Positions 1,316-43,145 of a DNA stretch of 63,888 bases are shown here, one piece after another. The DNA comes from a virus. Both the position numbers and the translations under genes were made by a program. Numbering within the stretch: the first letter of the stretch is position 1; the number at the start of each line of letters is the position of its first letter. The notes below the pieces were generated by a model. That model worked only from the letters and a program-made list of their open reading frames with translations. It was not told the DNA's origin and did no database searches. Where the stretch lies: IMG/VR virus record IMGVR_UViG_3300020165_000002, one strand, 5' to 3'.

Positions 1316-1876
1316 ATGCACTCTCCTTACTACTTTATAATCAAACCTTTAGGTCTTGAGTATAATAATGAAATAGAAATCTCTGGTCAGAAAGTGATTG
1401 TGAACTCTACTGTTGAGAATCATAAACATGTAAATAGATTTGCTAAAGTAGTTCATGTACCTAAAAGGTATAAAGGCAAAATCATTAAAGATGATTTAAT
1501 TATCGTCCACCACAATATATTTAGAATATATTATGATATGAAAGGCCGTCCAAAAAAATCACCAAACTACTTTAAAAATGGGCTATATTTTATAGATGAA
1601 CAGCAGTTTTATTTATATCATAATGGTAAGAAGTGGAATTCTGTTTTAGATTATTGTTTTGTAAAACCTATAGACGTAGAAAATTCGTATCTTTATGAGG
1701 AAGGGTTAGAAGACAATACAGGTTATTTAGTTTACTCAAACAATGAACTTTCTAAACTAGGAGTTAAAGAGGGTGATAAAGTTAACTTCAGGAAAGATAG
1801 TGAATATGAGTTTGAGGTAGATGGAGAACTTTTATACAGAATGAAATCTAGTGATATATGCACGATACTACAATAA
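1316..1876 (+). CDS. hypothetical protein (186 aa)
   Basis: Tightly packed, co-oriented ORF. Confidence 0.6.
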   Translation: MHSPYYFIIKPLGLEYNNEIEISGQKVIVNSTVENHKHVNRFAKVVHVPKRYKGKIIKDDLIIVHHNIFRIYYDMKGRPKKSPNYFKNGLYFIDEQQFYLYHNGKKWNSVLDYCFVKPIDVENSYLYEEGLEDNTGYLVYSNNELSKLGVKEGDKVNFRKDSEYEFEVDGELLYRMKSSDICTILQ

Positions 1877-2142
1877 ATGACATAAAAAAAAGAATTATAC
1901 AGGCAGGTCATGAGGCTGTAAACGAATTAATTAATGTAGCAAAAGAAAAAATTGTAACAGGAACAGAAGATGATGTTTCTGCTGATAGATTAAAAAATGC
2001 AGCTGCTACAAAAAAGTTAGCAATATTTGATGCTTTTGAAATATTAAGCAGAATTGAACAAGAAAAAAGCTACATTGATAATAAACCTATAGAGAAAGAT
2101 AAGAAGTCTTTTAGTGGTTTTGCAGAAAGAAGATCTAAGTAA
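1858..2142 (+). CDS. hypothetical protein; possible small terminase subunit (guess from position only)
   Basis: 94-aa ORF ending in a TAATG overlap with the large terminase start. Confidence 0.35.
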   Translation: MHDTTINDIKKRIIQAGHEAVNELINVAKEKIVTGTEDDVSADRLKNAAATKKLAIFDAFEILSRIEQEKSYIDNKPIEKDKKSFSGFAERRSK

Positions 2143-4358
2143 TGTACAAACAAACTCTATATTTCATAACAAAAGATATTATACCTGAAAAAGTTTTAAA
2201 ACTCAGGAATAAAAAAAAATCTTGGGCTTATGGATATAATAAAGAGTTTGATGTTATTATTATTAGCAAGACAGGTGAGATAGGAGATATTTATTCTATA
2301 CAAGGCCTGATTATTGCATTACCAAAAGAAGATAATGTAGAAAACTCAGAGAAGTGGACTAGAAAAGAATACCCAAAAGAACTAAAGACAATAAAGAGTA
2401 TCTTTGATTGGAGGGATTTGCCAGATGATTTTAAATTAAAATGGCACAAATACATAGATGGTGAATTTAAAAAACGTGAAGAAGGGTATTGGTTTAAAAA
2501 TAAAGGCGTTAGCACTTATATTACTGGCACTCACTATATGTACTTGCAGTGGACCAAGATTGATGTTGGGAACCCAGAGTTTAGGGAAGCAAACAGATTA
2601 TTCTTTATATTCTGGGAGGCTTGTAAAGCAGACAAGCGATGTTATGGAATGTGCTATCTCAAGAATAGACGTTCAGGTTTTTCGTTTATGGCATCCGCAG
2701 AGACGGTTAATTTGGCAACCATATCTTCCGATTCACGCTACGGGATACTGTCCAAATCTGGAGCCGATGCGAAGAAGATGTTCACAGATAAAGTGGTTCC
2801 AATTTCAATCAATTATCCATTCTTTTTCAGACCAATACAGGACGGTATGGATAGACCGAAGACAGAACTTGCCTATAGAGTTCCCGCATCAAAATTTACC
2901 AGAAAAAGATTCGATTCAAAAGATAGACCTCAAGAGATGGAAGGATTGGACACGACCATCGACTGGAAAAACACGGGAGATAACTCCTATGATGGAGAAA
3001 AACTCTCCCTCCTCGTCCACGATGAAGCGGGTAAATGGGAAAAACCAGAAAACATCCTCAACAACTGGAGGGTTACAAAAACAACATTAAGATTAGGTTC
3101 AAGAGTTATAGGTAAATGCATGATGGGTTCAACATCTAATGCATTAGATAAAGGTGGAGAAAACTTTAAAAAGCTATATAATAATTCAGATGTAACTCAG
3201 AGGAATAAAAATGGACAAACACAATCTGGCCTTTACAGTTTGTTTATTCCAATGGAATGGAACTTTGAAGGATATATAGATGAGTATGGTTTTCCTGTAT
3301 TTGAAACTCCTAAAAAAGAAATAAGAGACTCTTACGGAGACATAATTGATACAGGTGTTTTGGATAGTTGGGAAAATGAAGTAGAGGGATTAAAGAATGA
3401 TCCAGATGCATTAAATGAATTTTATAGACAATTTCCAAAAACAGAATCTCATGCTTTTAGAGATGAGTCAAAAAACACTCTATTCAACCTTACAAGAATA
3501 TATGAACAAATAGATTACAATGACTCTTTTGCTGTAAAAACTTCAGTTACAAGAGGTAATTTTCATTGGAAAGCAGGTAAAAGAGATACAGAAGTTATTT
3601 TTTCTCCAGAAACAAAAGGAAGGTTTTTTCTTTCTTGGATTCCTTCACCTGAAATAAGAAACAATGTTATAGATAAAAATGGCAAAAAGTATCCAGGAAA
3701 TAAACACTTGGGCTCTTTTGGAGGAGATTCATATGATATATCTGGAGTTGTAGGAGGAGGAGGATCCAAAGGATCAGTTCATGGAATGACTAAGTTTCAC
3801 ATGGAAGATGCTCCTACTAACATGTTTTTTTTAGAGTATATTTCTAGACCTCAAACTGCTGAAATATTTTATGAAGATGTTTTGATGGCTTTGCATTTTT
3901 ATGGAATGCCTATATTGTTAGAAAACAACAAGCCTAGAATTTTATATTACCTAAAAGAAAGAGGGTACAGAGGTTTTTCTCTTAATAGACCTGATAAACA
4001 TAGAAACGTTTTGTCAAAATCTGAAAAAGAATTAGGCGGTATACCATCTTCATCAGCAGTAATTTCTGTACATGCTGAGAACATAGAAAGCTATATTGAA
4101 GGCCATGTAGGAGTTTTAAGAGATGAAGGTAATATAGATTATGGTAGTTGTGGAAATGTTTTCTTTAACAGGACTTTATTGGATTGGGCAAATTACGATA
4201 TCAATAACAGAACTAAATTTGATGCAACAGTAAGTTCTGGGTTTGCCATTATGGCAAATCAGTCTACTATTAAGAGGGGTGAAGAAAAACGTAATCAAAT
4301 AAATCTTAACTTTGCAAGATACAGTAACAAAGGTTTTGTTAGTGAAATTATTAAATAA
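2142..4358 (+). CDS. terL: terminase large subunit
   Basis: 738 aa. Walker-B-like 'LLVHDEAGKW' and an acidic nuclease-like C-terminal half ('GGDSYDISG'). Lies directly upstream of the portal-sized ORF. Confidence 0.8.
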   Translation: MYKQTLYFITKDIIPEKVLKLRNKKKSWAYGYNKEFDVIIISKTGEIGDIYSIQGLIIALPKEDNVENSEKWTRKEYPKELKTIKSIFDWRDLPDDFKLKWHKYIDGEFKKREEGYWFKNKGVSTYITGTHYMYLQWTKIDVGNPEFREANRLFFIFWEACKADKRCYGMCYLKNRRSGFSFMASAETVNLATISSDSRYGILSKSGADAKKMFTDKVVPISINYPFFFRPIQDGMDRPKTELAYRVPASKFTRKRFDSKDRPQEMEGLDTTIDWKNTGDNSYDGEKLSLLVHDEAGKWEKPENILNNWRVTKTTLRLGSRVIGKCMMGSTSNALDKGGENFKKLYNNSDVTQRNKNGQTQSGLYSLFIPMEWNFEGYIDEYGFPVFETPKKEIRDSYGDIIDTGVLDSWENEVEGLKNDPDALNEFYRQFPKTESHAFRDESKNTLFNLTRIYEQIDYNDSFAVKTSVTRGNFHWKAGKRDTEVIFSPETKGRFFLSWIPSPEIRNNVIDKNGKKYPGNKHLGSFGGDSYDISGVVGGGGSKGSVHGMTKFHMEDAPTNMFFLEYISRPQTAEIFYEDVLMALHFYGMPILLENNKPRILYYLKERGYRGFSLNRPDKHRNVLSKSEKELGGIPSSSAVISVHAENIESYIEGHVGVLRDEGNIDYGSCGNVFFNRTLLDWANYDINNRTKFDATVSSGFAIMANQSTIKRGEEKRNQINLNFARYSNKGFVSEIIK

Positions 4359-4360
4359 AT

Positions 4361-7961: not shown

Positions 7962-7984
7962 TAAACGCTTAAAAATTTAAAAAA

Positions 7985-10301: not shown

Positions 10302-11033
10302 ATGATAAATAGCGTAAGAAATACTGTTATGTTTTTGTTGAATAAAGATAACAGAGGATATGTGTCTCCTTCAGAGTTTGATTATTTCGCTAAACAAGCT
10401 CAATTAGAAATATTTGAGTCTTATTTTTCTGAATATTCTAAAGCTCTATTAGCTCAAAACTCTAGAAAAAGAGGATTGAATTATGGAGACTCTGTTGCTC
10501 ATATACAAAACAAGATTGACATATTTTCAAAAAACCAAGCATTAACTTATTTTGATGCAATCCCAACTTCACCTGGTGGAGAAGAAGATTATTTTGTTGC
10601 ACCTACAGATTTATATAAATTAATAAACTTAACTTATGCGGGAAAGGTTATTCAACAGGTTCCGTCGCATAGATTTGATATGATTGTGAATAGCAATCTA
10701 TCTGCACCTAGTGTAACTTATCCCATATTTAAAAGAGAGGGAGATAAGATGATAGTAAGACCTGTAAGTATACATATAACAGGGTACAATTCAGTAAATG
10801 TTATTGCTAACTACATTAGAAAACCTTTAGATCCTCATTGGGGATATAATACGATAAACTCCGACCCTGTATATAATTCAGACAGTTCTGTGGATTTTGA
10901 AATATCCGAAGAAGATGAAACTGATTTAGTTATAAAAATATGTAAGTATTCTGGATTAAGTATAAGAGAGGCCGATGTTGTACAAGTAACTAGCCAACAA
11001 GAGCAGTTAGAATATCAAAAACAAAATTCATAG
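10302..11033 (+). CDS. hypothetical structural protein (head-tail adaptor position)
   Basis: 243 aa. Call rests on position in a T7-like gene order only. Confidence 0.4.
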   Translation: MINSVRNTVMFLLNKDNRGYVSPSEFDYFAKQAQLEIFESYFSEYSKALLAQNSRKRGLNYGDSVAHIQNKIDIFSKNQALTYFDAIPTSPGGEEDYFVAPTDLYKLINLTYAGKVIQQVPSHRFDMIVNSNLSAPSVTYPIFKREGDKMIVRPVSIHITGYNSVNVIANYIRKPLDPHWGYNTINSDPVYNSDSSVDFEISEEDETDLVIKICKYSGLSIREADVVQVTSQQEQLEYQKQNS

Positions 11034-14900: not shown

Positions 14901-17247
14901 AAGAAAGGAAGACAAAACAAAATTAATTTATAGTGGTTCATTTAACGAGAATACAGGATACAACACTTTAAATGAGTTTAATTCTAGTAGAGGTATTACT
15001 AAGTATATGGATTCAAAATACGGGTCTATACAGAAAATATTTGCTAGAGAATCTGATCTTGTAGTATTTCAAGAAGATAGGGTTTCTAAGGTTTTGTATG
15101 GGAAAAATATATTATCTAGTCCTGACGGAAGCGGAAGTTTATCGCAAATAGAAAAAGTATTGGGTCAAGACGTTCCTTTCACGGGAGAATATGGAATATC
15201 ACTGAATCCAGAGTCTTTTTCAAACTACGAAGGTAGGCTGTATTTTGCTGATCCAAACAGAGGAGCTGTTTTGAGATTAGGAAACGATGGAGTTACACCT
15301 ATATCTTATTTAGGAATGAAGGCTTTTTTCAAAGATAAGCTTTATAATAATAAATCTTATTACAATATAGGAGGGTACGACCCAAAGTATCATCAATATG
15401 TTTTATCTATGGGCAACAATCAAGTTCCGCAAGACTCATTAGAACTTGACTGTGCTTCTTCTTTTACAAGATTAATAACAGGAAGTGCTTTTTCATATAA
15501 CTTGAACGTGGGTTCTTTTTCAGGAGTTACAACAATAGGATACACAACATCATCTAGTATAAATATTGTAATTGTTTATAATGGTGTAACATACACAAAC
15601 AACAACCTGACAGGAAGCGGTCAAGTTACTTTTAATGTAACTTCTAATGACTTAGATGTAACAAATATCGCTTCAGTTACTATAAGCTCTAACTCTACTT
15701 CTGATGCTACTGTTAGTATTACACATACTTGTCCTGTTCCAGACACTTTAGAAGTTGTTTTAGTTGTTGTAAATGACTCAACAGAGGCATCAGAAACAAT
15801 TATAAACAGATATAAGCATAATGGAGCTCAAGGAGATATTTATAATTCAAATTTAGATATTTTTGAGGCAGATGAACTTACTAGATATGAGGTTATAACA
15901 GGATATGAAGGTACGGATATAATACCAGATAATGGTGACACCGTAACAATATCTTCATTAAAACAAATAGGCACACACTCAGGACATTTTAACGTTTGTA
16001 ATAGTTTAGGTTATTTAGTTTCTGCAGCTTCTGGACTTAGTGTTCAAAATATTATAGACCAGGCAACATATCCAACTGTGACTACTTCAACTACTTCTGG
16101 TATTGAAGAAAACACAGTTAATTTTCAATTTAATAGAACAAATACAAGTCAAAAATTATATTTAGTTTGGAACTATATAGATTCTTTACCTGTATTAACA
16201 AACGATAGTGTTACTGGAATTACAAATGGAGGTAGTAGTATTATAAATGTTGTTGCAAACGACTCTATACCTTCTCCATATACCCTTACAATAGGTACAG
16301 CTCCATCATACGGTACTGCTGTAGTTAATTCAGACAACACTATAACTTATAATCATACATCGGGAAATAATCTAAATGATAGCTTTACTTATGTTGTTAG
16401 TAGAGGTGGAGCGTGTCAAGCAACTGCAACGGTTACAACTCAAGCATTAGCAATATCTGTAGATACCTACATATACATATACTTTGATAATTCGGGATCT
16501 ATGGCAACAACTGAAACCGAGCTTCAAACACTTAGGACTGGTTCTTTAAAAGGAACTTTACAGGATCTTTATGCAACTGGAGGAACGGAGTCTAGTGGAA
16601 ATACAAATAACGCAACAAACGGTAGTGATGAATATGATAGTAAAGTAACTATTGTTTACGGAGCAGGTTCTTCAACTAGCTGGCAAAATGAAAGAACTTT
16701 TGCTGCCTTAGGAGATAATGATGTAAATGATTTTATATCTACATCAACGCATAACAATTTTCCATCCGACGCTAGTAATGTGATTGTGATTGTTTTTCAA
16801 GACGAGTCAACTCCTTACAATGCAGGTGGAACTGGAAGCACAGCCCCAGCAAGAACAGCAACGTACGACACAGATATAGCTGACTTGAGATCAAGAGTTA
16901 CTTCTTTAAATTCATCTAACAGTGGGTTTTATAGAGGTATATTAATGGAAGTACAGGGTTATGCGCAGTTTAATGCGTTTATTGATGCGGTAATTGGAGG
17001 TACAGGAACTTATTCTGGCACAAATGGATTATCAGACTTAGTTTCTGGTTCATCACCTACATTTAATTTCGTTCAAAACGTAGAGGAAAGCGACAATAAT
17101 GACGCAAATGCTCCTCTTAAACCAGTACCATACACAGGTAATTTTGATCAATGGCAATACTATTACCTGTATTTAGTAACCGATGCACTTAACACACTAG
17201 GCTTTTCTCCATCGCCAGGAGCATGGCCTGTAGTAATAGACGATTAA
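11926..17247 (+). CDS. giant tail/nozzle-position protein with a cadherin-like Ig segment and a C-terminal VWA (MIDAS) domain
   Basis: 1773 aa in the position of T7 gp12. 'VLTNDS..NVVANDS..FTYVV' is a cadherin/VCBS-like segment (~16190-16440). 'YIYFDNSGSM' is a DxSGS MIDAS motif (~16480-16510), followed by an alpha/beta-like region. Confidence 0.5.
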   Translation: MKIQNLFSTGKMNKDVDERLIQNGEYVDALNVRVLNTAGGDSGAIENEKGNVKLTNVNLSNSPECIGSVANESKEKIYWFVVNELGYSYIYEYDRKNNITSNILTDERSGDQQVLNFNKDYKITGVNVIFNNSKKSNLILWTDGLNQPRMIDIKRAKSYGLNNFYEDDISLYKKPPKKAPTVTPFNSLVTSENAVRENFFAFGYRYRYLDGGYSAPSSFSYFQFTPEDFSLDFASMENKGMLNIFNGYRINYESGDHRVTDVQLLFKYPTEPTIYVIDNINKKESSILDNSSQAYEFVNKKIYKTLPQDEVFRVFDDVPLTAKSQDFINDRIVFGNTTSQYDVVEEEGSNDKIKIDYTVDLVSKDQEGDKKDGALSTGDTKIVFDLTGENLLQGYTITANFSVKSDAAGTSPNIYFNGRAVCQSAFVLAQDYATVSDMVQSAEFVSFLGSLSSVFASVVNTTSPLNTTLVTYGSFSLDTSSSTSFTILAPSITHQVDTTPLDTTDNVFTNELENFKFEDGSHIKIRQSVSNISLKSLRSYEVGLVYLDKYGRYSSILLPKESVGTTSNEVFVPISESVNLNKLRLSISNNPPYWADRYKYFVKVNKDSHYNIYATIFYEDGLYRWVLLQGNNLGKVEAGQTLIVKADDTGPLNKEIKCKVLDVTTKNGADEEIDGEGWIPANQNGAGDPLVERAGTYMKIRPNGFQMDFNPNNFIEYRTKKRAGGGFLNTWAGTNTVYLPKGPHTGLSGLILLSNGLLNEGILQRLNETNNTWVNQDLTTGSSIKLELVYSESDGSPNFNYFKEWTSNGDYVTTATDNAFGLFLKNETNFTYENVSISDAVNGTRFTIPSLNDQDENFKLDIYKTSQGYGATGRWMIRVQPSEGTATFENSTLEANIDIVLVTTLAIFETEPVDLDADIYYETEEVFEISNGLHKGNHQDQTSTLPAISNLGFGNCFSFGNGVESMRVLDDRFKAKIDVKSRPNIAIIEGYERKEDKTKLIYSGSFNENTGYNTLNEFNSSRGITKYMDSKYGSIQKIFARESDLVVFQEDRVSKVLYGKNILSSPDGSGSLSQIEKVLGQDVPFTGEYGISLNPESFSNYEGRLYFADPNRGAVLRLGNDGVTPISYLGMKAFFKDKLYNNKSYYNIGGYDPKYHQYVLSMGNNQVPQDSLELDCASSFTRLITGSAFSYNLNVGSFSGVTTIGYTTSSSINIVIVYNGVTYTNNNLTGSGQVTFNVTSNDLDVTNIASVTISSNSTSDATVSITHTCPVPDTLEVVLVVVNDSTEASETIINRYKHNGAQGDIYNSNLDIFEADELTRYEVITGYEGTDIIPDNGDTVTISSLKQIGTHSGHFNVCNSLGYLVSAASGLSVQNIIDQATYPTVTTSTTSGIEENTVNFQFNRTNTSQKLYLVWNYIDSLPVLTNDSVTGITNGGSSIINVVANDSIPSPYTLTIGTAPSYGTAVVNSDNTITYNHTSGNNLNDSFTYVVSRGGACQATATVTTQALAISVDTYIYIYFDNSGSMATTETELQTLRTGSLKGTLQDLYATGGTESSGNTNNATNGSDEYDSKVTIVYGAGSSTSWQNERTFAALGDNDVNDFISTSTHNNFPSDASNVIVIVFQDESTPYNAGGTGSTAPARTATYDTDIADLRSRVTSLNSSNSGFYRGILMEVQGYAQFNAFIDAVIGGTGTYSGTNGLSDLVSGSSPTFNFVQNVEESDNNDANAPLKPVPYTGNFDQWQYYYLYLVTDALNTLGFSPSPGAWPVVIDD

Positions 17248-27250: not shown

Positions 27251-27699
27251 TAATATTTTTCTTTTATAATATTTATTACCTCTTGACAATCTTTCTGGTT
27301 TCTGGGTACAAATAAATCTGGAGACCAGCCTTTTAAGTTGAGGTGTCTTTTAAATAATTTCCAAACCATAGGAAATCTCTCATTTGGGTTTCCTTTACAC
27401 TCTATAATATATCTTGGAGGTACTTGAGTATCAACAAAATCAGGAGTATATCTTATGGGTAATATTTTTTTATAACCTTTATCGTGTAGAAATTTCTTTT
27501 TAGGTGTTTTTTCGTAAGAAGAATGTTCGCTCAGAAATCCGTCAATGATTGTGAATTGATGTGTTTCGTATCCGTTACTTATTTCATTTGCCTTTAATAA
27601 TAAATACATGTGAGACTCTAGTCTTGATTGAAATTGTATTCCGTCAATAACTGTTTTAGTTGCTCTAGTTATTTGCTTATTCTTTTTATATCTCTTCAT
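27247..27699 (-). CDS. PD-(D/E)XK-type endonuclease (DUF1064/resolvase-like)
   Basis: 150 aa. 'GIQFQSRLE..YLLL', 'YTPDF' and 'IIECKG' match the small phage nuclease pattern. Last gene of the - strand arc, convergent with the 2173-aa ORF. Confidence 0.5.
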   Translation of the reverse strand: MKRYKKNKQITRATKTVIDGIQFQSRLESHMYLLLKANEISNGYETHQFTIIDGFLSEHSSYEKTPKKKFLHDKGYKKILPIRYTPDFVDTQVPPRYIIECKGNPNERFPMVWKLFKRHLNLKGWSPDLFVPRNQKDCQEVINIIKEKYY

Positions 27700-28418: not shown

Positions 28419-29519
28419 TTAAAATATATGTGTTAATCTAGCTACTTGACCAAATTCTGGGTGATGTAAAAACCCTTCAATTGCTTTTGGAGCATGCTGA
28501 TATCCATTTCTATGATGCCAACTATCTGTTCCAGACGGACTTCTTAAACTTTCTACTGTTACACCTGCGTAATCTTTTGCGTTTTTATGATGAACATGAT
28601 GTGTATAAACGTACCTATGTTGTGATTGTGACCACTCATCTTTAGCTTCTACAGCCATAAGTAAAGGTAAATCATTGTTCTTTGCACCATCTCCGTGAGT
28701 CGTTCCTATTAGGTTAGACCCATATTTAAAATATTTTCTATGACTTATACTAGAATCAAAAGTTACGTTTTTAGATTTCCTAAACCAAGTTGTAATAACG
28801 TCAGCTAAAAAGAATCCGTTAGTGTAATCATGATTACTAGGATTGTATGTTACATGAACATCTGCTATAGACATAAGTGTTTCTATAACCTCAACATAAA
28901 TAGCTTTTGCTTTTAAAAAACTTTCGTACCACATCCCATCAGTATCTTGAGGTGTTCCAGAGGTAGTTTGTCTTTTAGGAGTGTCTATGTGTAATATATC
29001 GTTACCTATTATTAACAAGAATTTATCTACTTCAAAACCAGCAGACTTATTTAATATTCCTTGAACACCATCCCTAACTCTTTGTATAGCTATTTCAGAA
29101 TTATAATCTTCACCAGTCTCGAAAGACGTGGACAACTTCCCAATATGTACATCAGCTGGATCTATAACTAATAAGTGAGGGTCTTTTTTGTTTTTTCTTT
29201 TTACTGAAGGATACTTTGGAGAGTAAATCTTCATCTCCTCGATTATCTGCCTAGATATATCGTTGTATGAAACTATAGTAGGTCTTACTTGTACTGAATA
29301 CTCTTTTGTTTTGTCCCAGTACTGACTAACACTATTGAAATCAATACCTCTTTCTTTACAGTAATCAGCAACACCTTGATGTCTTACTTGATTTAGTTTT
29401 TGTTGAGACTCAATATCTATATAGGCTCTAAAAGTTTTTCTACCTTGCTCTGTTTCTTTTACTTCTAAGCCTAAAGCTATCGCTTCTTCTTTGTTTAGTC
29501 TAACTCTTTTTTTACTCAT
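28419..29519 (-). CDS. calcineurin-like metallophosphoesterase
   Basis: 366 aa with 'DPADVHIGK', 'GNDILHID', 'NPSNHDY', 'GTTHGDG' and 'THHVHH', the five phosphoesterase motifs in the usual order. Confidence 0.7.
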   Translation of the reverse strand: MSKKRVRLNKEEAIALGLEVKETEQGRKTFRAYIDIESQQKLNQVRHQGVADYCKERGIDFNSVSQYWDKTKEYSVQVRPTIVSYNDISRQIIEEMKIYSPKYPSVKRKNKKDPHLLVIDPADVHIGKLSTSFETGEDYNSEIAIQRVRDGVQGILNKSAGFEVDKFLLIIGNDILHIDTPKRQTTSGTPQDTDGMWYESFLKAKAIYVEVIETLMSIADVHVTYNPSNHDYTNGFFLADVITTWFRKSKNVTFDSSISHRKYFKYGSNLIGTTHGDGAKNNDLPLLMAVEAKDEWSQSQHRYVYTHHVHHKNAKDYAGVTVESLRSPSGTDSWHHRNGYQHAPKAIEGFLHHPEFGQVARLTHIF

Positions 29520-33078: not shown

Positions 33079-33814
33079 TTTGTATTATTTTAAAGTCAAA
33101 TCCTGGTTGATCGTAAAATTTCTTATCTTTCTCTAATTCAGTCTTAGTTCCACTCTTGGTGCTTTGACCTTTCCATTTCCATTTATAGCTACCAGAGTTC
33201 TTTATAGCATCAACTTTGTTGTATTTGAGCCAATTAACAAAATGAGACTTATAGTCTTTTATTGAGTTTTTAATTTCGTCAGTCATTATCAGATGATTGT
33301 GAAACGTATCCAATGCTTTATCTAAAGACTCTTTGTTAATTGAGTTTTGCATACAAACAACTTCAGCCCAAGTTGCAGAATTAAGACAATCAGTTAAAAA
33401 TATGTTATTTTTATTTTCTTGTTTTATTATATTCTTATTTATCTCTGTCGCTTGCTTGACACTTGTTTGTCGTTTGCTTGTCGTTTTCTTTTTAGTTTTA
33501 CGCTCCTCAACTTGATAACTCTCATAGTTACAGATAGTTACCTTGGTATATTTATTTGTCGTTTGCGTGTCTATTTCTCCCGTTTGTTTAAGCCTTTTTA
33601 TAGCTGTTCTTACCTTTCTGATTGGTATGTCCAGATCAACAGAAATCCTATTAAGAGACGTAATGTATTCCCCTTTAGCCACAGCTTTGCCCATAAATCT
33701 ACAATCGTCGTAGCAGGCATTTAATAGTAAGTGTATGAATATAATTTTAGTATTGGAGTCCTTGTACCATTCCCAATCGAGAATCCTCCTGTGAAGCTTG
33801 ATATACCCTTTCAT
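33068..33814 (-). CDS. replisome organiser / replication initiation wHTH protein (putative)
   Basis: N-terminus 'GYIKLHRRILDWEWYKD..' is typical of phage replication-organiser N-terminal domains. K/T-rich linker. Confidence 0.5.
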   Translation of the reverse strand: MKGYIKLHRRILDWEWYKDSNTKIIFIHLLLNACYDDCRFMGKAVAKGEYITSLNRISVDLDIPIRKVRTAIKRLKQTGEIDTQTTNKYTKVTICNYESYQVEERKTKKKTTSKRQTSVKQATEINKNIIKQENKNNIFLTDCLNSATWAEVVCMQNSINKESLDKALDTFHNHLIMTDEIKNSIKDYKSHFVNWLKYNKVDAIKNSGSYKWKWKGQSTKSGTKTELEKDKKFYDQPGFDFKIIQNGH

Positions 33815-34337
33815 TGTTTTCTTCTTTATTTGTTATAAGCTCATTGATAGTATCCGCCAAGTTATCAATAAACTCTCTGTTTTTGTATAGTTTTTCTGTA
33901 ATTTCACTGTATTTCGTTAAAAACACAATGTCTTCTTCATGGTAAATTTTCTTTGCAATCTTTTTTTTGTACTTGTTTGATTCATCGTACCTGTATTGCT
34001 CATAATCCACAAAGTATTTTACTTCGTTTTCTATTTCACCTATATACTCTTTATATTCTTTGTCGATTGAAATCCAATCTTTAACTAATTTTGAGCTATA
34101 GATTATAGTCGCATGATTGTGAGCGCTGCCACGACCTCTGTGTTTAGAGTAGTTTCCTATATCCTGTAAAGGAAGATTTGTGAATCTAGTTGCTAAGTAA
34201 AAAAACACTTTTCTTAAATCACACACCTCTCTTTTTCTTGTGTCTTGAAATATATATTGATCATCTACTTTATGTTTTTTTTCTATAACCTCTGAGATTA
34301 TATCGAGCACTTGATATTTATCTGTTTTTGTTTTCAT
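33747..34337 (-). CDS. DnaA domain IV-like helix-turn-helix DNA-binding protein
   Basis: 'CDLRKVFFYLATRFTNLPLQDIGNY..HNHATIIYSSKLV' parallels the DnaA C-terminal pattern (R..a.YL.r..t..S...IG....dHtTV.ha..k). Overlaps the next ORF by 68 nt. Confidence 0.5.
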   Translation of the reverse strand: MKTKTDKYQVLDIISEVIEKKHKVDDQYIFQDTRKREVCDLRKVFFYLATRFTNLPLQDIGNYSKHRGRGSAHNHATIIYSSKLVKDWISIDKEYKEYIGEIENEVKYFVDYEQYRYDESNKYKKKIAKKIYHEEDIVFLTKYSEITEKLYKNREFIDNLADTINELITNKEENNERVYQASQEDSRLGMVQGLQY

Positions 34338-34791: not shown

Positions 34792-35523
34792 TTATATTTC
34801 GCCATACTTAGTAAAGTTTTTAAGGTCTGCCTCTTTGTTTACAAAATACTTTAGAAATTGAGTTTCCGCTGCTTCAACTTTGTAATATCCGTTATCATAC
34901 GCTTCGTCTGATGTTTCAAATATTCCAATAAGTCCTGTACCTTTTTCTATTACTAAAAACTTCATAGGTTTTTGAAATAGTTTTGAGTATATAAACGCTT
35001 GACTATCGTAATTATAGGATCTAGAGCTGTTGCGAAAACTTTTAAGCTTTGAGCACGTCTTGATGTCGTAAACAAAATCGTCTGTAATGATATCAGCCTT
35101 ACCTTTCCATGGTATATCGTTCTCTGTCATAAAGCCTACAGAAGGAACTTCAAACTTAATATTTTTAGTATTTAGCACTTCCTTGATGTTATCATTTGAC
35201 TTGAACACATCAACCATGTTTAGTATTTCATCAGCTTCTTTTTGTAGTAAAATTATTTCTTTACCACTATCTAAAATTGCTTGTTTATAGATTTTAGTTG
35301 TACGAGTTGATGACTCAATAGCCTCCATGTTGTCGCTTTTACCAAACATAACCATTTCATGAAATGCCGACCCGTAGAGGAACGGCAATGATTGTGATTT
35401 TGGTTGGTGAAAACTATACGGATTATTGATTAGAGCATCTATGTCTGAGTTAGACAAATACTTCTGACCAAACTCACCATAGTAATGCTTGTCGTCTTGT
35501 AGTTTTTTTATTACTTTTTCCAT
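34792..35523 (-). CDS. RecB/Cas4-family PD-(D/E)XK exonuclease
   Basis: 243 aa. 'GSAFHE', 'GKADIITDDFVYDIKT' (D..D.K) and 'YDSQAFIY' (QxxxY). Confidence 0.6.
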   Translation of the reverse strand: MEKVIKKLQDDKHYYGEFGQKYLSNSDIDALINNPYSFHQPKSQSLPFLYGSAFHEMVMFGKSDNMEAIESSTRTTKIYKQAILDSGKEIILLQKEADEILNMVDVFKSNDNIKEVLNTKNIKFEVPSVGFMTENDIPWKGKADIITDDFVYDIKTCSKLKSFRNSSRSYNYDSQAFIYSKLFQKPMKFLVIEKGTGLIGIFETSDEAYDNGYYKVEAAETQFLKYFVNKEADLKNFTKYGEI

Positions 35524-36761: not shown

Positions 36762-36821
36762 TCGGTGATTGTGAACTGTTAAAGTATGTTTGTGCTAATG
36801 TATGTATGTTTTAATTTAATT

Positions 36822-37318: not shown

Positions 37319-39091
37319 TTAACTTAAGAATTGTTCAAGTTGGTCTAAAGTTACATCTTCATGTACTGTATAGTCAATATTGTTTAGTCTTATTGTTACT
37401 GATTGTGATTCAAGTATATCACCTTTGACCATACAATGAACACTTTCATTTATTAGTATATAAGAACTTATAACATCTGAGAATACAACATCATCACAGT
37501 GTGCATAATTATTATCGTGTTCCATATAGACAACGTCTTCTGATTCTTTGAATACGCAACTATTGTCTACAGTTCTTACCATATCATCTATATGATAAGT
37601 TTCACTATTCCAATCGCAGAAAAACGTATCATCATTATGATAATAACCTTCTTCAACAGTACCGTATTCTATGTAACTTACATCATCTTCGTGATATCTT
37701 TCACCATTTACACATAATGCACCGCCTGCCTCACCTCCGTCTGTAGAGTCAAGTGTATGAGTATCGTTATTACTGTCGTTTGTAAGCTCTAATTTTTTGG
37801 AGTATATACATTCAGTATATTTGAAGGTGTCCATATATGGCATGTAGTCACTATTACGTTCAAGTGTTATTGTATATTCACCTTCTATAATTTCACCTAC
37901 TGTAGTTACAAATTCTGTGTCATTGGAATAGCTCTGTACTTTTTTATGCATATAACCATTTTCGTGTGCCCACTTTTTAAATGCGTTTCTTGTTATTTCA
38001 TTGCCATAAATTCTATCCATTATTAATGTTTTACAATCTGTATACCAAAGTAGTGCACGTCCTATAATACCCTCTTCTGTATTAGCAATTAGCATTTTTA
38101 CTTTATCAGGATTGTCAACATATATGTCAAAGAAATCCTGACAAGAGTCATGTCTCATACAAGAGTTTCCTAGTGATTCTGTGTTACCGCTAGCATATTG
38201 GTCGTAATGATAATAATGACGTATATCCTCACCCTTTACTATTTCCATTTTACCTAGGAATGTGTAATCTGCTTTGAGTGATTGTGATATATTTTGTATA
38301 TCAACCATGCTAGTTGGTGGTAAATCAGGTTGATTTAGTATAGCACGTATACCTTTACCGTATTTTATTTCTTGTCTACGGTCTCTAGCCCATACTGTTC
38401 CTTGGTCACTATCTACAGTTCTACATTGTTTACCTTTAGGTAAGCAAGTCATTTTACCTTCTTTGTTTATTGTGAAGTTTCTGACAGTGTCTATATGATA
38501 GTTAGTATTATCTATTAAATTTAATACGCGTCCAAGTTTTCCGATACGTTGCGTATCGTGGTCACGTTTAAATAAATCATCAGTACTTGGTTGCATTCTG
38601 TCAATAATTCTACCAATTTTACTTTTTAATGTTTCAGACATCATTGAGTATTTACGACTACGTTTAGAGTTGTACATATTGTATTGCATTTTTACAATAT
38701 CATATATCTTTAGTTTGTAGTCTCCAAGGTCAAGTGTTTCATTATAGTCATCTAGTTTGAAATCAACAGAAAACATTCTATTAGTACTATCTTCAAATGT
38801 TTCATGTTCAATCAGATACTTAAAGTATATAGATGAACGTAATTTAGCTACAATTTTTTTAGCTGTTCGTGCAGCAAACAGTGTACTGCAATCGCATTCT
38901 TGAATTTTACATGCTAGATTGTATATACTCATAGTTCTATCAGAATATATGCTTTGTGCTATACTTGTGCATACGTTTAGTATCTTCATGTGTAGTGCAT
39001 GGTTACTTTGGTCGTCTGGTAGCTTGAATGTTTTGATGTAGTCATCATTGATTACATTTCTTACTGCGTCTTGTATTATAATGTCTAGCAT
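37319..39091 (-). CDS. hypothetical early protein (590 aa), Cys/His/Asp-rich C-terminus
   Basis: Long ORF with a conserved-looking 'GNSCMRHDSCQDFF..GRALLW..DRIYG' core. No family assigned by eye. Confidence 0.6.
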   Translation of the reverse strand: MLDIIIQDAVRNVINDDYIKTFKLPDDQSNHALHMKILNVCTSIAQSIYSDRTMSIYNLACKIQECDCSTLFAARTAKKIVAKLRSSIYFKYLIEHETFEDSTNRMFSVDFKLDDYNETLDLGDYKLKIYDIVKMQYNMYNSKRSRKYSMMSETLKSKIGRIIDRMQPSTDDLFKRDHDTQRIGKLGRVLNLIDNTNYHIDTVRNFTINKEGKMTCLPKGKQCRTVDSDQGTVWARDRRQEIKYGKGIRAILNQPDLPPTSMVDIQNISQSLKADYTFLGKMEIVKGEDIRHYYHYDQYASGNTESLGNSCMRHDSCQDFFDIYVDNPDKVKMLIANTEEGIIGRALLWYTDCKTLIMDRIYGNEITRNAFKKWAHENGYMHKKVQSYSNDTEFVTTVGEIIEGEYTITLERNSDYMPYMDTFKYTECIYSKKLELTNDSNNDTHTLDSTDGGEAGGALCVNGERYHEDDVSYIEYGTVEEGYYHNDDTFFCDWNSETYHIDDMVRTVDNSCVFKESEDVVYMEHDNNYAHCDDVVFSDVISSYILINESVHCMVKGDILESQSVTIRLNNIDYTVHEDVTLDQLEQFLS

Positions 39092-40188
39092 GATTGTGAG
39101 TTTTCAGGGTTACTAAATAATGGATCGTATCCAAGTTTACTTTCTATTTCATCACGTACATCATCTTCTATTTCTGTTAGTACATCTAATTCGTATGCTG
39201 TTATGTAGTGACCACAATTTTGACACCAAAAAGCATCTTCATATTCGTCATACAACATTTCTGCGTGATTACATTCGTTACATTTTTGGTTTATTTTTAC
39301 TAACTCTTCATTATCGTCGTGATATATGTTATCATAAAATGCTGAACCTTGACCATTATGGTCGCTTGGTTGAGTCCAACCTCCATACATTTGTGCATTG
39401 TAGTTACCATAACCATAATCGTAATATGTAACACGAGAGTCTTTATCCATAGTGTAACGCTTTAGTTGTGTAGCTGCAAGTATTTTCATACACATGCGTT
39501 TCACTTTTTCTACCTCTGATATAACAATATATTCATTTTCGCTATGAGGTTCATAGTAACCGCATGACATGTTTGCTACTTGAACATCATTGTTTTCAGC
39601 TATTTCACCAACGTCTGTTATACCTCCGTTACAAGTAACAAATTTATATTCATCTATAATATGTTGTATATCTTCAATAAGTGTGTCGTCACTTAGTTTT
39701 GTTCCTGATATATTTGTAACAAAGTCTCCGTAACCACGTCTATCACATTCTAAAACTATTGTACTGTCGTTGAAGTAATCAAAGTCTGCATTTGAAGAAC
39801 CGACACAACCAACCTCTTCGTCAAGAAAGAAAACTGCTTTGAAGTTGTCAAATTTACGTAAACAACATAGTGTGATATATATACCTACTTTGTCGTCACC
39901 TCCTATACCAATTCTATGGCAGTTTGTTGAGTCAATAGCAAACATTTTATCACCTGTACGTACAATACGTACATTGTCATTGATACTGTGAACTGTATCA
40001 ATATGGCATACCATTGTTGGGTATAAGTCTGCATCACCTTTGGTCACATAGATGTTACCATATTTATCTTTACTGTAACCTAGACCATCTTTTTGTAGTG
40101 TCTTGGTTATGAATTTAGCCATTCTGTGTGTTTTGTATGAAGCTGACTGTACTTTCATAATTGATGCTAAGAAATCATTTTTTTTCAT
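39085..40188 (-). CDS. M42/M20-like zinc aminopeptidase fused to a C-terminal zinc ribbon
   Basis: Metal-ligand series 'CHIDTVH', 'GGDDKVG', 'LDEEVGCVGS', 'LECDRRG' and 'YYEPHSENE'. C-terminal 'CNECNH..CQNCGH'. Confidence 0.55.
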   Translation of the reverse strand: MKKNDFLASIMKVQSASYKTHRMAKFITKTLQKDGLGYSKDKYGNIYVTKGDADLYPTMVCHIDTVHSINDNVRIVRTGDKMFAIDSTNCHRIGIGGDDKVGIYITLCCLRKFDNFKAVFFLDEEVGCVGSSNADFDYFNDSTIVLECDRRGYGDFVTNISGTKLSDDTLIEDIQHIIDEYKFVTCNGGITDVGEIAENNDVQVANMSCGYYEPHSENEYIVISEVEKVKRMCMKILAATQLKRYTMDKDSRVTYYDYGYGNYNAQMYGGWTQPSDHNGQGSAFYDNIYHDDNEELVKINQKCNECNHAEMLYDEYEDAFWCQNCGHYITAYELDVLTEIEDDVRDEIESKLGYDPLFSNPENSQSC

Positions 40189-40199: not shown

Positions 40200-40568
40200 T
40201 TAATTATTAAATTGATTTTTAATTGTGTTATACATAAGTATTGCACATTCTTTGCGTGTTAAAGTCTTTGGATTTTTAGCAATGATTGTGAATACATCTT
40301 CGATACTATCAGTTGTAAGTAATGGTTGTTTAGTCTCATAACTAAATAGATTTCGTTGTTTGTCATTGAGTATTTTGTCTACCTCATTATTGACATCGTC
40401 AAGGGCTAATTCGTAACCATATTGTTTAGCCATTTGTACAAGTAGTACGTCATTACTACCATGGTTCGCTTGCATAAACTTATCTAGATATGTAGCGCTT
40501 GGAGTACCGACAATACTTTTTTTCAAGTCGGCAACTCGTTTGTAAGTGAATTCTTTTATGTGTTTCAT
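40200..40568 (-). CDS. hypothetical early protein (start trimmed to MKHIKEF)
   Basis: The track start at 40610 would overlap the upstream gene by 38 nt. The ATG at 40568 sits in the recurrent TAA-n-TTATG junction. Confidence 0.5.
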   Translation of the reverse strand: MKHIKEFTYKRVADLKKSIVGTPSATYLDKFMQANHGSNDVLLVQMAKQYGYELALDDVNNEVDKILNDKQRNLFSYETKQPLLTTDSIEDVFTIIAKNPKTLTRKECAILMYNTIKNQFNN

Positions 40569-40572
40569 AATT

Positions 40573-41181: not shown

Positions 41182-41383
41182 CTTTATTAGTTTTTAGATT
41201 ATTAATTTGGACAGTCATATTTTTCTTGACACTGTACCATAAGTCAAGTTTATCTGTTATTGTTTTTAGCTCTTCACTTTTAGTCTGGTGTTGATTGTGA
41301 AGTTTGTCAATAAGCATTATTACATCTGCTTGATCGTTTTCTAAGTCACGTATGATTGTGACTGCTTTGTTGTAGTGTAACAT
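41153..41383 (-). CDS. hypothetical early protein (start trimmed to MLHYNK)
   Basis: The track ORF extends to 41425, across the tRNA. The internal ATG at 41383 lies 15 nt after the tRNA 3' end. Confidence 0.5.
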   Translation of the reverse strand: MLHYNKAVTIIRDLENDQADVIMLIDKLHNQHQTKSEELKTITDKLDLWYSVKKNMTVQINNLKTNKDESSIEKPV

Positions 41384-41397
41384 ATCTATATTTTTAG

Positions 41398-41470: not shown

Positions 41471-41558
41471 GTGTGAGGAAAAAGCATGTAAAACCTCGGT
41501 CTAATTTTAATCATATTATACTGCTTTTATTACTACTAGTCGCATCCTATGATTGTGA

Positions 41559-41727: not shown

Positions 41728-42141
41728 TTATTCAGGTCTTTCTTCAGCTAATCTGTCAACCTGTTTGTCAGGAAACTGTTGATTGGCATCTGCAATTGAT
41801 AGGAAACCTAATTGGTCAAAGATAGAGTCATCAGTTGCGAACTCTTCTTCTTCGGTGTAGGCATCCATTTTGTTGTCAAACAACCATTCGGGGATTTTAA
41901 CTCTGACTTTCTTAGTCTTTGCGTTAAGAACTGTTAACGATGATTGTGAGCGTGGCATGTAAATTTCTTTGAATAGTAATTCTTTGCCTTGTTTACAATT
42001 AGCTAATTTGATAGCCTTACCTGAAGGGTGAAGCTCTACAAGTGTGGCATCAAAAGTGACTGTTGTTGAATTTGCATTTTTCATAATATATAATAATTTA
42101 AAATTAGGCCGACCATATAAAATGCATTTTGGGTTAGGCAA
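41728..42141 (-). CDS. first early protein, acidic C-terminal third (alternative start at 42084, MKNANS)
   Basis: First ORF leaving the control region on the - strand. C-terminus 'DAYTEEEEFATDDSIFDQL'. Confidence 0.55.
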   Translation of the reverse strand: MPNPKCILYGRPNFKLLYIMKNANSTTVTFDATLVELHPSGKAIKLANCKQGKELLFKEIYMPRSQSSLTVLNAKTKKVRVKIPEWLFDNKMDAYTEEEEFATDDSIFDQLGFLSIADANQQFPDKQVDRLAEERPE

Positions 42142-42274
42142 TTGTGGTAAGGGAAATAATTTTAAAAAGTTTTGATTATATAAATAGATGATTGTGATAA
42201 GCCAATTGTTGATAGATTAACGACTACCTAAATAGATAGCACTAGCCCAAAAGTTTTTAAAAATATTTTACTTA

Positions 42275-42290
42275 GGCGATTTTTATCGCC
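42275..42290. other. Hairpin GGCGAT-TTTT-ATCGCC (same GC-rich hairpin family as the early-region terminators)
   Basis: Read directly. The U-tract is not adjacent on either strand, so terminator function is uncertain. Confidence 0.35.
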
Positions 42291-43145
42291 GACCCTATTG
42301 AATAACCCAAAATTCATTTTAGGTTTGCCGTCAATTTTAATTTTTATTTGAAAAATGTGAATTCGATGACAGTCTCTACTTTTGACCACAGTTGGAGAGA
42401 TTTGCACGGCAGGTAATGATAGCTATCCAATTAGCTAATTTTAAACAAATCTGTCTTGTCTTTCAATGACATTTATATGTTGCGCTTGCAATTGTCCATT
42501 GTTTTTTAATGCAAAGAGTGAGGGAGTTAGTGTTCTAATCTCTACTAGTTTGACGACGGAATGGATGCTTACAGCGAAAACTTATGTCGACAACTGAACT
42601 CTGTCTTTGAACAAGTAGGTTATCAACTACTTAGATGCCACTCAGTTTTCTGTCAACAGGTGACGTTATGTTAGATTGAAAGGCAGGGATAGGATAGGTT
42701 ATCTTATGATTGTGAAAGCCTCAGCATTTTTTAATGGAGAAGCCTGCGTTACGCTTTAAGCTGATAAGCTTAAATAAAAAGGCTAGGGCTTTAGCCCGTT
42801 CCGCTTCAATAAATAAAATATAATACCCCTAGGGTTAGACCCGTAAGGAAAAACCTTACCCGTACAGATTGTATAATATATTTTAACCAATACCAATATC
42901 CATAAGGTATAGTTTACGTAAAACTATAGTAATACAAAAAAGCTAAAAGTTTTGAGTAGTACGTACAGAAAAACGACCCCCATGGGTGTTGTAACTACGT
43001 TTCTATGTAGTGAGTATGTATGTAGTACCATAGGTTATCTCAAACTTCTGTATTTGTGGCTAGTTTTTGTAAACACCTATTACACTTACTTATGGTCAGT
43101 AGCTATTTACAATATAGTGCCACATTTAGGAGTTAGATAATTGAT

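Follow-up and report, generated by a model that had tools for sequence, protein, structure and literature searches.

A one-strand nine-base word coincides with DNA discontinuities in a clade of uncultured phages

Why should a phage genome carry one exact nine-base word many times on one strand and never on the other, at a density that rises towards a single locus and then falls to nothing? The question is posed by the 63,888-nt stretch of viral DNA analysed here (the window), which assembled as a circle of 63,761 unique bases whose termini overlap by 127 nt. A first-pass annotation, made from the sequence alone, had described the word as a polar, DNA-level signal aimed at an ORF-free region at about 42.7-43.2 kb. 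It preferred to see in it Chi-like sites and offered strand-specific nick sites, binding sites of a phage protein and primase or translocase signals as further options; shuffled controls, a one-mismatch count and a search of related phages were proposed as checks.

Distribution of the word in the window

The word, TGATTGTGA, was found 23 times on the + strand, at every start that the annotation had given, and not once on the - strand of the whole window; dinucleotide-preserving shuffles averaged 0.71 and never exceeded 4. Its one-mismatch variants gave 14 non-exact matches on both strands together, below the shuffles (∼24 matches in all); near-variants are thus not enriched, and only the exact 9-mer carries the signal. 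A logo of 138 non-redundant sites reads R-TGATTGTGA-W, the flanks beyond being without signal. The series extends from 1395 to 42715, with intervals that shorten monotonically approaching 42.7 kb (Spearman rho -0.90, p = 1e-8), and the word-free arc, earlier put at some 22 kb, measures 22,449 nt (P = 0.0016 under uniform placement). By their coordinates, copies in + strand genes are invariably read as (A/G)TG-ATT-GTG and those in - strand genes as SQS (six), HN (two) or TI (two), while ∼8 of the 23 lie at gene junctions or in intergenic DNA. These data bear out the first-pass description throughout, from the one-strand count, spacing and reading frames to the polarity towards the ORF-free region. 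The copies and the conserved block at the end of the series are:

1395..1403, + strand: copy 1, TGATTGTGA on + and TCACAATCA on -; within + ORF 1316-1876, read V-I-V; farthest from the boundary
10681..10689, + strand: copy 2, within + ORF 10302-11033; antisense to the leftward reading
16781..16789, + strand: copy 3, within + ORF 11926-17247 (virion protein)
20730..20738, + strand: copy 4, the A before the word completing the ATG start of the 2173-aa ORF 20729-27250
23328..23336, + strand: copy 5, within ORF 20729-27250
25221..25229, + strand: copy 6, within ORF 20729-27250
27546..27554, + strand: copy 7, within - ORF 27247-27699, last of the leftward block; T-I frame
28623..28631, + strand: copy 8, within - ORF 28419-29519 (exonuclease), SQS frame; kept in relatives L003 and L004
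31208..31216, + strand: copy 9, within - ORF 30977-31324
33294..33302, + strand: copy 10, within - ORF 33068-33814 (DnaD-like replisome organiser)
34114..34122, + strand: copy 11, within - ORF 33747-34337 (DnaA-C HTH protein); straight after the iteron-like word AGTCGCA
35389..35397, + strand: copy 12, within - ORF 34792-35523 (PDDEXK exonuclease)
36766..36774, + strand: copy 13, intergenic; 5 nt beyond 11-bp tandem repeats at 36702-36761
37400..37408, + strand: copy 14, close to the 3' end of - ORF 37319-39091
38279..38287, + strand: copy 15, mid - ORF 37319-39091, SQS frame
39091..39099, + strand: copy 16, TCACAATCA on the - strand leading into the ATG of ORF 37319-39091
40283..40291, + strand: copy 17, within - ORF 40200-40610
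41292..41300, + strand: copy 18, between - ORF 40573-41181 and tRNA-Glu
41353..41361, + strand: copy 19, 61 nt away from copy 18
41550..41558, + strand: copy 20, 80 nt upstream of tRNA-Glu (- strand); follows the word AGTCGCATC and adjoins 19-bp tandem repeats at 41576-41664
41941..41949, + strand: copy 21, within the first leftward ORF, 41728-42141
42189..42197, + strand: copy 22, 48 nt upstream of the start of ORF 41728-42141
42707..42715, + strand: copy 23, the boundary copy, after which the series ends
42676..42717, + strand: conserved non-coding block GGGATAGGnnnGGTTATCnnATGATTGTGAA, containing the boundary copy

Three copies come straight after iteron-like words. The gradient runs from non-coding DNA at ∼42.7 kb through the leftward early and replication genes into the convergent late genes, where it stops. 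The last copy precedes the start of GroEL by ∼1.1 kb, at -1151 in the window and at -1127, -1142 and -1088 in three relatives, and a contig of L004/L006 terminates 26 nt beyond the boundary copy. The block around this copy, as aligned between the window and L085, L087, L088 and L089, could be an end, an origin or a control element.

Conservation among uncultured relatives

We took as relatives those IMG/VR loci that are 69-100% identical in the primase-helicase (GC 30-43%). In ∼80 of them the search found 291 copies of TGATTGTGA in the same orientation and none in the opposite one; the background in 842 kb of the relatives' TerL surroundings was 8:8. Relative L004 retains all ten word sites, copy 14 among them, of a segment that is 79% identical in nucleotides, compared with 25% of 9-mers overall remaining intact. 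Copy 1 has a homologous site in the close relatives L106 and L109, and in L108 and L109 the homologues of copy 2 are placed +8625 and +8683 relative to the start of TerL. In more distant relatives the density of the word is maintained while the positions of sites turn over from one subclade to another; TGATTGTGA stays constant although local iterons vary. The word is under selective maintenance across a large phage clade.

Contig ends within the word

The ends of the relatives' contigs bear on what happens at the word. Eighteen of 76 true right-hand ends stop exactly at ...R-TGAT, within the word (binomial P = 2e-22; mirror control 1/61), and these ends come from at least 17 metagenomes. The flanks of several match individual sites of the window: L019 and L022 terminate in ...TGAT at copy 10 (33294), L009 in ...agtcgcaTGAT at copy 11 (34114), L065 in ...ggaacggcaaTGAT at copy 12 (35389), and L005 and L007 in ...cggTGAT at copy 13 (36766). 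None of the relatives' contigs starts with TGTGA. Left-hand ends are instead ragged, lying 3-36 nt upstream of a complete word, with nine ends no more than 30 nt away where 1.6 were expected. Four independent contigs (L011, L057, L064 and L081) start 3-11 nt upstream of the copy 7 homologue; for the homologue of copy 9 the distance is 36 nt in L010 and 25 nt in L021, and for that of copy 1 it is 3 nt in L106. L016 begins 35 nt before a copy whose flanks resemble those of copy 6. The side of the break opposite the exact ends overlaps them by 7-40 nt. Exact right-hand ends together with ragged opposite ends show that the relatives' DNA is physically discontinuous at one bond, between word positions 4 and 5 (TGAT^TGTGA, or TCACA^ATCA on the other strand, the caret marking the bond). 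Tandem iterons, which can break assemblies by themselves, precede six of the 18 exact ends; the other 12 are without them. None of three ENA contigs with the identical primase terminates at a word, and the window assembly passes through all 23 sites, so that the breaks are not apparent in all data sets.

A related word in T7-like cyanopodoviruses

T7-like cyanopodoviruses carry a related word, WCACANTCAY, in a ratio of 140:5, and exact TCACAATCA in a ratio of 41:0, frequently directly upstream of start codons. Six of 67 contig starts in this group fall exactly after WCACA (P = 1e-5; mirror control 0/63), and contig L439 begins CTCATCACATG, the word directly ahead of the P-SSP7 RNA polymerase gene. 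Two phages of one host, Prochlorococcus MED4, have different variants of the word. Since these cyanophages have Shine-Dalgarno sites and TATAAT promoters, their hosts belong to a phylum other than that of the window's host. Programmed one-strand breaks are probably present in T7-like cyanophages as well.

Probable programmed one-strand breaks and the alternatives

From the contig ends, we consider it likely that packaged DNA has programmed, site-specific one-strand breaks at TGATTGTGA (on the other strand, TCACAATCA), the option of T5-like nick sites that the annotation had ranked behind Chi. Such ends establish a discontinuity, which would be single-stranded and may be ligatable. The break would be a nick in the - strand, 5'-TCACA^ATCA-3', an assignment that assumes shear-plus-end-repair libraries: the asymmetry between exact and ragged ends would arise because shearing followed by end repair leaves an exact end solely on the fragment with the 5'-phosphate side of the nick. 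The putatively nicked strand codes for the early genes and runs 5' to 3' away from the 42.7-kb boundary. A putative phage-encoded nickase may cut the word late in infection, so that virions would receive the - strand in up to 24 pieces, paired with an uninterrupted + strand; we recognised no candidate nuclease for this role in the window. The gradient suggests a link to the genome end that is first packaged or injected.

Exact ends within the word, and a boundary copy inside a conserved non-coding block, might also be produced by a terminase or other endonuclease cutting both strands, with virion ends at many copies as in multiple pac or cos sites. This we judge unlikely: one side of the break is exact and the other ragged with a 7-40-nt overlap, which suits a nick plus shearing rather than a clean cut, and complete circular assemblies pass through every site. 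The alternative ends would number 23 over 41 kb, in genes of both orientations, and we know of no packaging scheme that matches this. In the Chi-like reading preferred at first pass, the word would be the Chi of a host AddAB/RecBCD enzyme, stacked by the DNA end where the nuclease enters so as to stop degradation or start recombination. The geometry suits it, since a DNA end at ∼42.8 kb would be the 3' terminus of the strand on which the word reads 5' to 3'; a fall in density with distance is what probabilistic recognition of single sites would give, and the word is constant despite variable phage iterons. Chi sequences known to us have 5-8 bases, none being as long as this 9- to 11-base word. 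There is a closely similar precedent in phages LLS, MD8 and P1, where Chi sites, irrespective of genes, are co-oriented and crowd towards one genome end: LLS has 23, with 20 in active orientation and a cluster at the right end, and MD8 has 32:0 (Zheng et al. 2025; PMC12315714). There, however, the word is the host's, makes no DNA breaks and is an octamer, and Chi-rich phages usually lack a recombination module (PMC12315714), whereas the window has its own exonuclease genes. Chi sites make no fixed-bond ends of the kind seen at 18 of 76 contig ends; the clade has DNA ends inside a word whose family, exact 9-mer included, is shared with cyanophages of another host phylum and differs between two MED4 phages, and 50 kb each of one Cellulophaga and one Flavobacterium phage held no copy. 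We therefore regard Chi as quite improbable.

Still less probable is a tracking enzyme other than a nickase, whether a phage RNA polymerase that would have the word as its promoter and, as in T7, would also pull in the genome or, as in the annotation's primase and translocase option, a T7 gp4-like primase-helicase with strong priming or loading sites on the lagging-strand template. T7 has 17 co-oriented promoters that thin along the genome, as the word does, and the T7-type core TCACTATAG is akin to TCACAATCA; TTGTG in the word is likewise close to TTGTC, the T7 primase site, a zinc-ribbon gp4-like protein is encoded in both phage groups that bear the word, and the cyanophage word often directly precedes start codons. 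T7 promoters are however 23 bp long and always face genes, whereas six conserved copies of the word are antisense to late genes, which no copy faces. A profile search of the window found no T7-like RNA polymerase (E > 0.5), nor do its large proteins contain RNA polymerase motifs. Cellulophaga phage phi10:1, with a 43% identical primase-helicase, has no copy, and neither version predicts fixed-bond DNA ends. Binding sites of a phage protein, such as the DnaA-domain-IV-like product of ORF 33747-34337, nucleating near an origin and spreading, had also been put forward; a 9-bp asymmetric site has the size of a DnaA box, and the copies after iteron-like words fit such a role. The word nevertheless agrees with the DnaA-box consensus TTATCCACA at only four of nine positions, two phages with DnaA-C proteins (MW202828 and phi10:1) lack it, and strict co-orientation over 41 kb and fixed-bond ends are left unexplained, so that we give this proposal very little credence.

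Comparison with nicked phages

One-strand breaks, the reading that we favour, have experimental precedents: localized single-strand interruptions were shown in T5, phiKMV and tf/LUZ24 (PMC3517423, PMC11780129). The 14 mapped nicks of Pseudomonas phage tf all lie in the top strand at TACT/RTGMC, a word of which near-variants are few (PMC3517423), and Nanopore sequencing of phage Rembedalsseter, with 60 relatives, gave the same pattern for WACTRTGAC (PMC11780129). The annotated tf positions thin out from the early end: 12 belong to the early coding strand, two lie antisense within the convergent late block, and the final 20% of the genome has none. The window resembles tf, Rembedalsseter and their ∼60 LUZ24-like relatives in having an exact one-strand 9-mer (14:0 and 13:0 there) with hardly any near-variants, kept across relatives of low nucleotide identity and placed within and outside genes, at times overlapping start codons. 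Shared too are the dense early end, the antisense extension into a convergent late block, the empty last fifth, a podovirus with two convergent gene blocks as carrier and, by inference for the window phage, nicking of the early-gene coding strand. The words themselves differ (TACT^RTGMC against TCACA^ATCA), as do the more numerous sites and steeper gradient of the window, its Bacteroidetes-type host (TAnnTTTG-like promoters and no Shine-Dalgarno sites, as read from sequence) and the evidence, which comes from contig ends rather than gels or native sequencing; we found no protein homology between the window and tf. T5/BF23 and phiKMV-like phages also have site-specific nicks in one strand of virion DNA, unevenly spread along the genome. 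In T5, mutants without nicks are viable, and the five major and many minor nicks follow a loose consensus, R/GCGCRGG, that is present on the un-nicked strand too, while phiKMV has ∼4 nicks with a 20-bp consensus (PMC3517423, PMC11780129); the window, in contrast, has one strict 9-mer at 23 sites. Localized single-strand interruptions have long been known in some phages; our data would extend them to a new group of uncultured marine phages.

Distribution of the word in the window

The first-pass annotation had described a short word recurring 23 times on one strand of the phage genome and crowding toward 42.7 kb. The window assembles as a circle (127-nt overlap, 63,761 unique bases); scanning all of it, we found TGATTGTGA 23 times on the + strand and 0 times on the − strand, at exactly the positions reported. 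The annotation's estimate of less than one chance hit per strand agrees with a mean of 0.71 in dinucleotide-preserving shuffles. The count of one-mismatch variants that it had proposed gave merely 14 further matches, spread over both strands, whereas the shuffles gave ∼24 matches in all; enrichment is therefore limited to the exact word, which is also the most strand-asymmetric word of the window at each length of 8, 9 and 10. Copies lie steadily closer together as 42.7 kb is approached (Spearman rho −0.90, p = 1e-8), as had been described, and the stretch of ∼22 kb seen to be empty proved to be a word-free arc of 22.4 kb (P = 0.0016 if placement were uniform). Gene coordinates likewise match the frames described, + strand genes reading the word as (M/V)-I-V and − strand genes reading it in all three frames. 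Since counts, spacing and frames all agree, the earlier description was correct in detail. In a logo of 138 non-redundant sites from the window and its relatives, R precedes the word (86%) and A or T follows it (85%), with no further flank signal within 30 nt.

The annotation of the window is that of a tailed phage, with the following main features.

Annotated features of the window
43174 across the junction to 27250, + strand: rightward late/virion gene block
2142–4358, rightward block: large terminase
4361–6802, rightward block: portal
43858–45727 (43.9–45.7 kb), rightward block: GroEL and GroES genes
42141–27247, − strand: leftward replication/recombination block
41397–41470, − strand: tRNA-Glu (UUC) gene, among the first leftward genes

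The leftward block encodes a T7 gp4-like primase-helicase, a DnaD-like organiser, a DnaA-C HTH protein, two exonucleases and a resolvase-like protein. Of the 23 word copies, 17 are carried by the template strand of leftward genes, so that TCACAATCA is on the coding strand of those genes; the remaining six fall inside late genes and run antisense to leftward reading. A mechanical ORF at 41153–41425 overlaps the tRNA-Glu gene and is unlikely to be real, in which case the copies at 41292 and 41353 would be intergenic. Directly upstream of the terminase, the protein at 1316–1876 has a weakly GroES-like C-terminus, and more than 100 phage GroEL clusters of the window's type are present in public data. 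Direct reading of the window sequence revealed promoter-like TAnnTTTG boxes and no Shine-Dalgarno sites, which point to a Bacteroidetes host. By TerL, the closest isolates are Flavobacterium ‘elemo’ and Cellulophaga podoviruses (identity 42% or less) and the closest record is the uncultured genome MW202828 (63%).

The window also contains tandem iteron-like repeats, likely to be origin elements: an 11-mer, TCAGTCGCATC, three to four times at 36702–36761; a 19-mer, GCCGCAACGATTCCGTACA, three times at 41576–41664; and TGTCGCTTGCT, 3.5 times at 33446–33483 within the DnaD-like gene. Iteron-like words occur in addition at 34107 and 41538, and three copies of the 9-mer lie directly 3′ of an iteron-like repeat or word. 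Repeats of this kind, with a GTCGC core, vary between lineages, whereas the 9-mer is invariant.

Conservation of density and orientation in relatives

The search of related phage genomes suggested in the first-pass annotation recovered the same polar word. Across ∼80 IMG/VR loci anchored on the primase-helicase (69–100% identity, GC 30–43%), 291 copies have the window's orientation and 0 the opposite one, and near-variants are rare. In GroEL-anchored loci of three relatives, ∼1.1 kb separate the last copy from the GroEL start downstream of it (−1127, −1142 and −1088; −1151 in the window), and beyond this copy follow 7–11 kb without copies, with one exception. This boundary copy (42707–42715 in the window) is within a conserved non-coding block. 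Against L004, a compared locus, all 10 sites are kept in a segment of 79% nucleotide identity where merely 25% of 9-mers are intact. Relatives of ∼60% identity have only 3–4 of 17 positions in common with the window, yet their genomes nonetheless carry 9–12 copies; what is maintained is therefore density and orientation, not position. The background around TerL (842 kb compared) is 8 forward and 8 reverse copies, and late-region sites are kept there by the closest relatives only.

MW202828, elemoF and Cellulophaga phi10:1 lack the word, and no copy was present in 5–11 kb of the higher-GC relatives L023–L026, L047, L050, L061 and L084 (GC 0.37–0.43; primase-helicase 69–79% identical). A search for a replacement word in L024–26, L047, L050 and L061 found none. 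Loss of the system or a change of host could account for these lineages, which would be useful in hunting a nickase by gene presence and absence. MW202828.1 (L001 and L002) carries, at ∼43.7–58.1 kb, 12–14 copies of TGTGTCGTTAACGACAC, a perfect 16-nt palindrome plus an extra T, mostly between small early genes and with spacing that narrows toward a divergent non-coding region, like that of the window word. The palindrome could be another solution to the same problem, or could form hairpin promoters or terminators.

Two MAG-binned contigs resemble phages of the window's group: L094 (NZMJ01000013.1, labelled Maricaulis sp. MAG) and L096 (labelled Lacinutrix sp. MAG). The former, of 64.7 kb, has a 75% identical GroEL with nine co-oriented word copies upstream, and is probably mis-binned. 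The matches listed by a GroEL protein search were phage GroELs only, and a phage GroEL alignment searched against genome contigs returned only phage-like contigs binned into MAGs; neither search yielded host DNA in which to look for a host Chi.

Contig ends at a fixed bond within the word

Breaks in the DNA at the word should tend to halt assemblies at that point. We therefore compared the true contig ends of relatives with word positions and flanks, using the mirror image as control. Ends within 15 nt of a copy were 6.7 times commoner than for random positions among contigs with true ends, and nine ends fell within 30 nt of a copy against 1.6 expected. Of 76 right-hand true ends in the window's orientation, 18 are exactly ...R-TGAT|, between word positions 4 and 5 (P = 2e-22 at a TGAT frequency of 0.0072 per position), compared with 1 of 61 in the mirror-image control. 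These 18 come from at least 17 different metagenomes, and the flanks of several agree with window sites 33294, 34114, 35389 and 36766. On the opposite side, no contig begins with TGTGA; contig starts there are ragged and precede a complete word by 3–36 nt, and four lie at the homologue of window site 27546.

One exact and one ragged side point to a single-strand break. Because left fragments are exact and right fragments ragged, we place the putative nick in the − strand, 5′-TCACA^ATCA-3′, a strand assignment inferred in dependence on library chemistry: after shearing and end repair, the 3′ side would be chewed back or filled in, so that an exact fragment end would arise only where the nicked strand gives a 5′ end. 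In three ENA contigs with an identical primase, 0 of 3 right-hand true ends and 0 of 1 left-hand true ends are at a word, although all word copies in those assemblies are co-oriented, and the window itself was assembled through all 23 sites; the break effect therefore depends on the data set.

Correspondence with known nick systems

In Pseudomonas phage tf, 14 nicks have been mapped experimentally, all in the exact 9-mer TACT/RTGMC and all in the top strand; just three one-mismatch variants of the word exist, none of them nicked, and tf-related phages have 8–9 copies on one strand (PMC3517423). The annotated tf positions (2.1, 3.5, 4.2, 5.3, 6.6, 8.6, 10.0, 12.5, 13.6, 15.7, 20.8, 24.7, 33.8 and 37.1 kb of 46.3 kb) widen in spacing away from the early end, with 12 on the early coding strand, two antisense in a convergent late block and none in the last 20%. 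The same pattern holds for WACTRTGAC in phage Rembedalsseter, studied by Nanopore sequencing, and in a survey of 60 relatives, with sites within and outside genes and some overlapping start codons (PMC11780129).

The tf and Rembedalsseter words reproduce each qualitative feature of the window's word: many copies on one strand with the exact word required (23:0 in the window, 291:0 in relatives), uneven placement toward the early genome end (relative positions 0.001–0.65 in the window, 0.045–0.80 in tf), conservation of word and strand across a phage family despite divergence and, on indirect evidence from assemblies, a break at a fixed bond inside the word. We therefore regard a strand-specific nicking system, which would recognize and cut the word, as the best explanation, an option that the first-pass annotation had listed second and that the ends at a fixed bond (18/76) and the tf-like pattern now favour. 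The nicked strand would be the coding strand of the early genes, the same geometry as in tf. A likeness in sequence to the tf word (TACTGTGAC versus GATTGTGAA, 6 of 9 positions) was dropped, the inferred nicked strand being the complementary one. No HNH, GIY-YIG or other candidate nicking enzyme was recognized in the window, where many ORFs have no family match. The kind of system, localized single-strand interruptions as in phages T5, phiKMV and the tf/LUZ24-like group, is already known, though functionally unexplained; what is new is the word, the phage clade and the greater number of sites.

A related word in T7-like cyanopodoviruses

Scanning IMG/VR for closely spaced word pairs turned up two contigs of T7-like cyanopodoviruses, L207 and L392, each with five copies that are dispersed and share one orientation; one of the arrays begins ∼300 nt past the terminase gene, at the genome-end region. 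Most multi-copy matches were tandem repeats within coding sequence (for example N-D-C-D) and were discarded. In cultured cyanopodoviruses a WCACANTCAY family occupies the coding strand in roughly the left quarter of the genome.

Word copies in cultured cyanopodoviruses
P-SSP7 (L306), 2502–12526: 5 copies of WCACANTCAY
S-RIP1 (L423), 23639–30285: about 9 copies
S-CBP1 (L425), 1105–12580: about 8 copies, with both C and A at the variable position
S-CBP4 (L426), 2373–10201: 4–5 copies
P-GSP1 (L424): exact TCACAATCA twice

Over 79 cyanopodovirus loci (649 kb), WCACANTCAY occurs 140 times in sense and 5 times in antisense, and exact TCACAATCA 41 times to 0. Six of 67 true cyanopodovirus contig starts are exactly NTCAY, in the same register after WCACA (P = 1e-5), against 0 of 63 in the mirror control. 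One of the six begins CTCATCACATG, the P-SSP7 word that directly precedes the RNA polymerase gene, with the cut falling after ACACA. This end signal points the same way as that of the window's clade but is weaker, so cultured model cyanopodoviruses may, judging from these sequences, have nicked DNA; we found no report of nicked DNA in T7-like cyanopodoviruses in the literature. In P-SSP7, ACACACTCATCA precedes two ATGs by 1 nt: that of the RNA polymerase (word at 9422–9437) and an in-frame one 48 codons inside the primase-helicase gene (word at 6026–6041). The latter recalls the separate 4A and 4B starts of T7 gene 4.

Alternative explanations

The first-pass annotation had preferred Chi-like sites, at which a host RecBCD or AddAB nuclease would be attenuated. 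The attraction of this reading lies in close precedents: phage LLS has 23 Chi, of which 20 are actively oriented and crowd at the right end, and Pseudomonas phage MD8 has 32:0 (PMC12315714, published in 2025). Nevertheless, several observations speak against it. Contig ends fall at a fixed bond within the word (18/76). Phages of a Bacteroidetes-type host and cyanobacterial phages have the word in common (41:0 exact and 140:5 for the family in the latter), where sharing would be expected only among hosts with the same Chi, and two phages of one host strain, Prochlorococcus MED4, carry different variants; a Chi specific to one host does not easily account for such sharing across phyla. Finally, the window encodes its own PDDEXK exonuclease, DNA-repair exonuclease and resolvase-like protein, whereas Chi-bearing phages usually, if not absolutely, lack a recombination module. 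A double-strand cut site would agree with broken DNA but not with exactness on one side only, nor with complete circular assemblies that cross the sites.

Promoters for a T7-type RNA polymerase would require a cognate polymerase. A profile of four cyanophage RNA polymerases was negative in the window (E > 0.5), while a gp4 profile detected the window primase-helicase (2.6e-10); motif patterns for T7-like or N4-like RNA polymerases were also negative in the window, and PDB sequence searches with the 590-, 689- and 2173-aa proteins found nothing. Moreover, six conserved copies face against genes. Neither promoters nor primase sites predict the breaks, and the latter fail also in that the phi10:1 enzyme is 43% identical yet its genome has 0 copies. 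Binding sites for the DnaA-C protein find no positive support; the word matches a DnaA box at 4 of 9 positions. Searched for in the literature, the word and its variants turned up in primer sequences only.

Implications of the proposed strand-specific nicking

Phage DNA with programmed nicks has been recognized since the 1960s, but only from a handful of laboratory phages, and the purpose of the nicks is unexplained. If the strand-specific nicking proposed here is correct, it would be common in abundant ocean phages, including cultured P-SSP7 relatives usable for experiments, and nick sites could be found from sequence alone, as an exact one-strand word at one bond of which metagenomic contigs end. 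Such words would also break up viral assemblies unnoticed, about one in four of the examined contig ends being at the word, and they caution that not every polar, end-clustered phage word is Chi.

It is possible, if on balance doubtful, that a nick-word family WCACA^NTCAY is common to two unrelated groups of abundant marine podoviruses, the very large uncultured clade with Bacteroidetes-type gene signals and the P-SSP7-related T7-like cyanophages. Were this so, either the nickase would have to move horizontally or both groups would have to share a requirement of podovirus DNA packaging or entry, and site density, falling smoothly away from the early end, would be a trace of the packaging or entry process along the genome. 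Cultured cyanophages would then allow a test of what purpose phage nicks serve, a question 50 years old.
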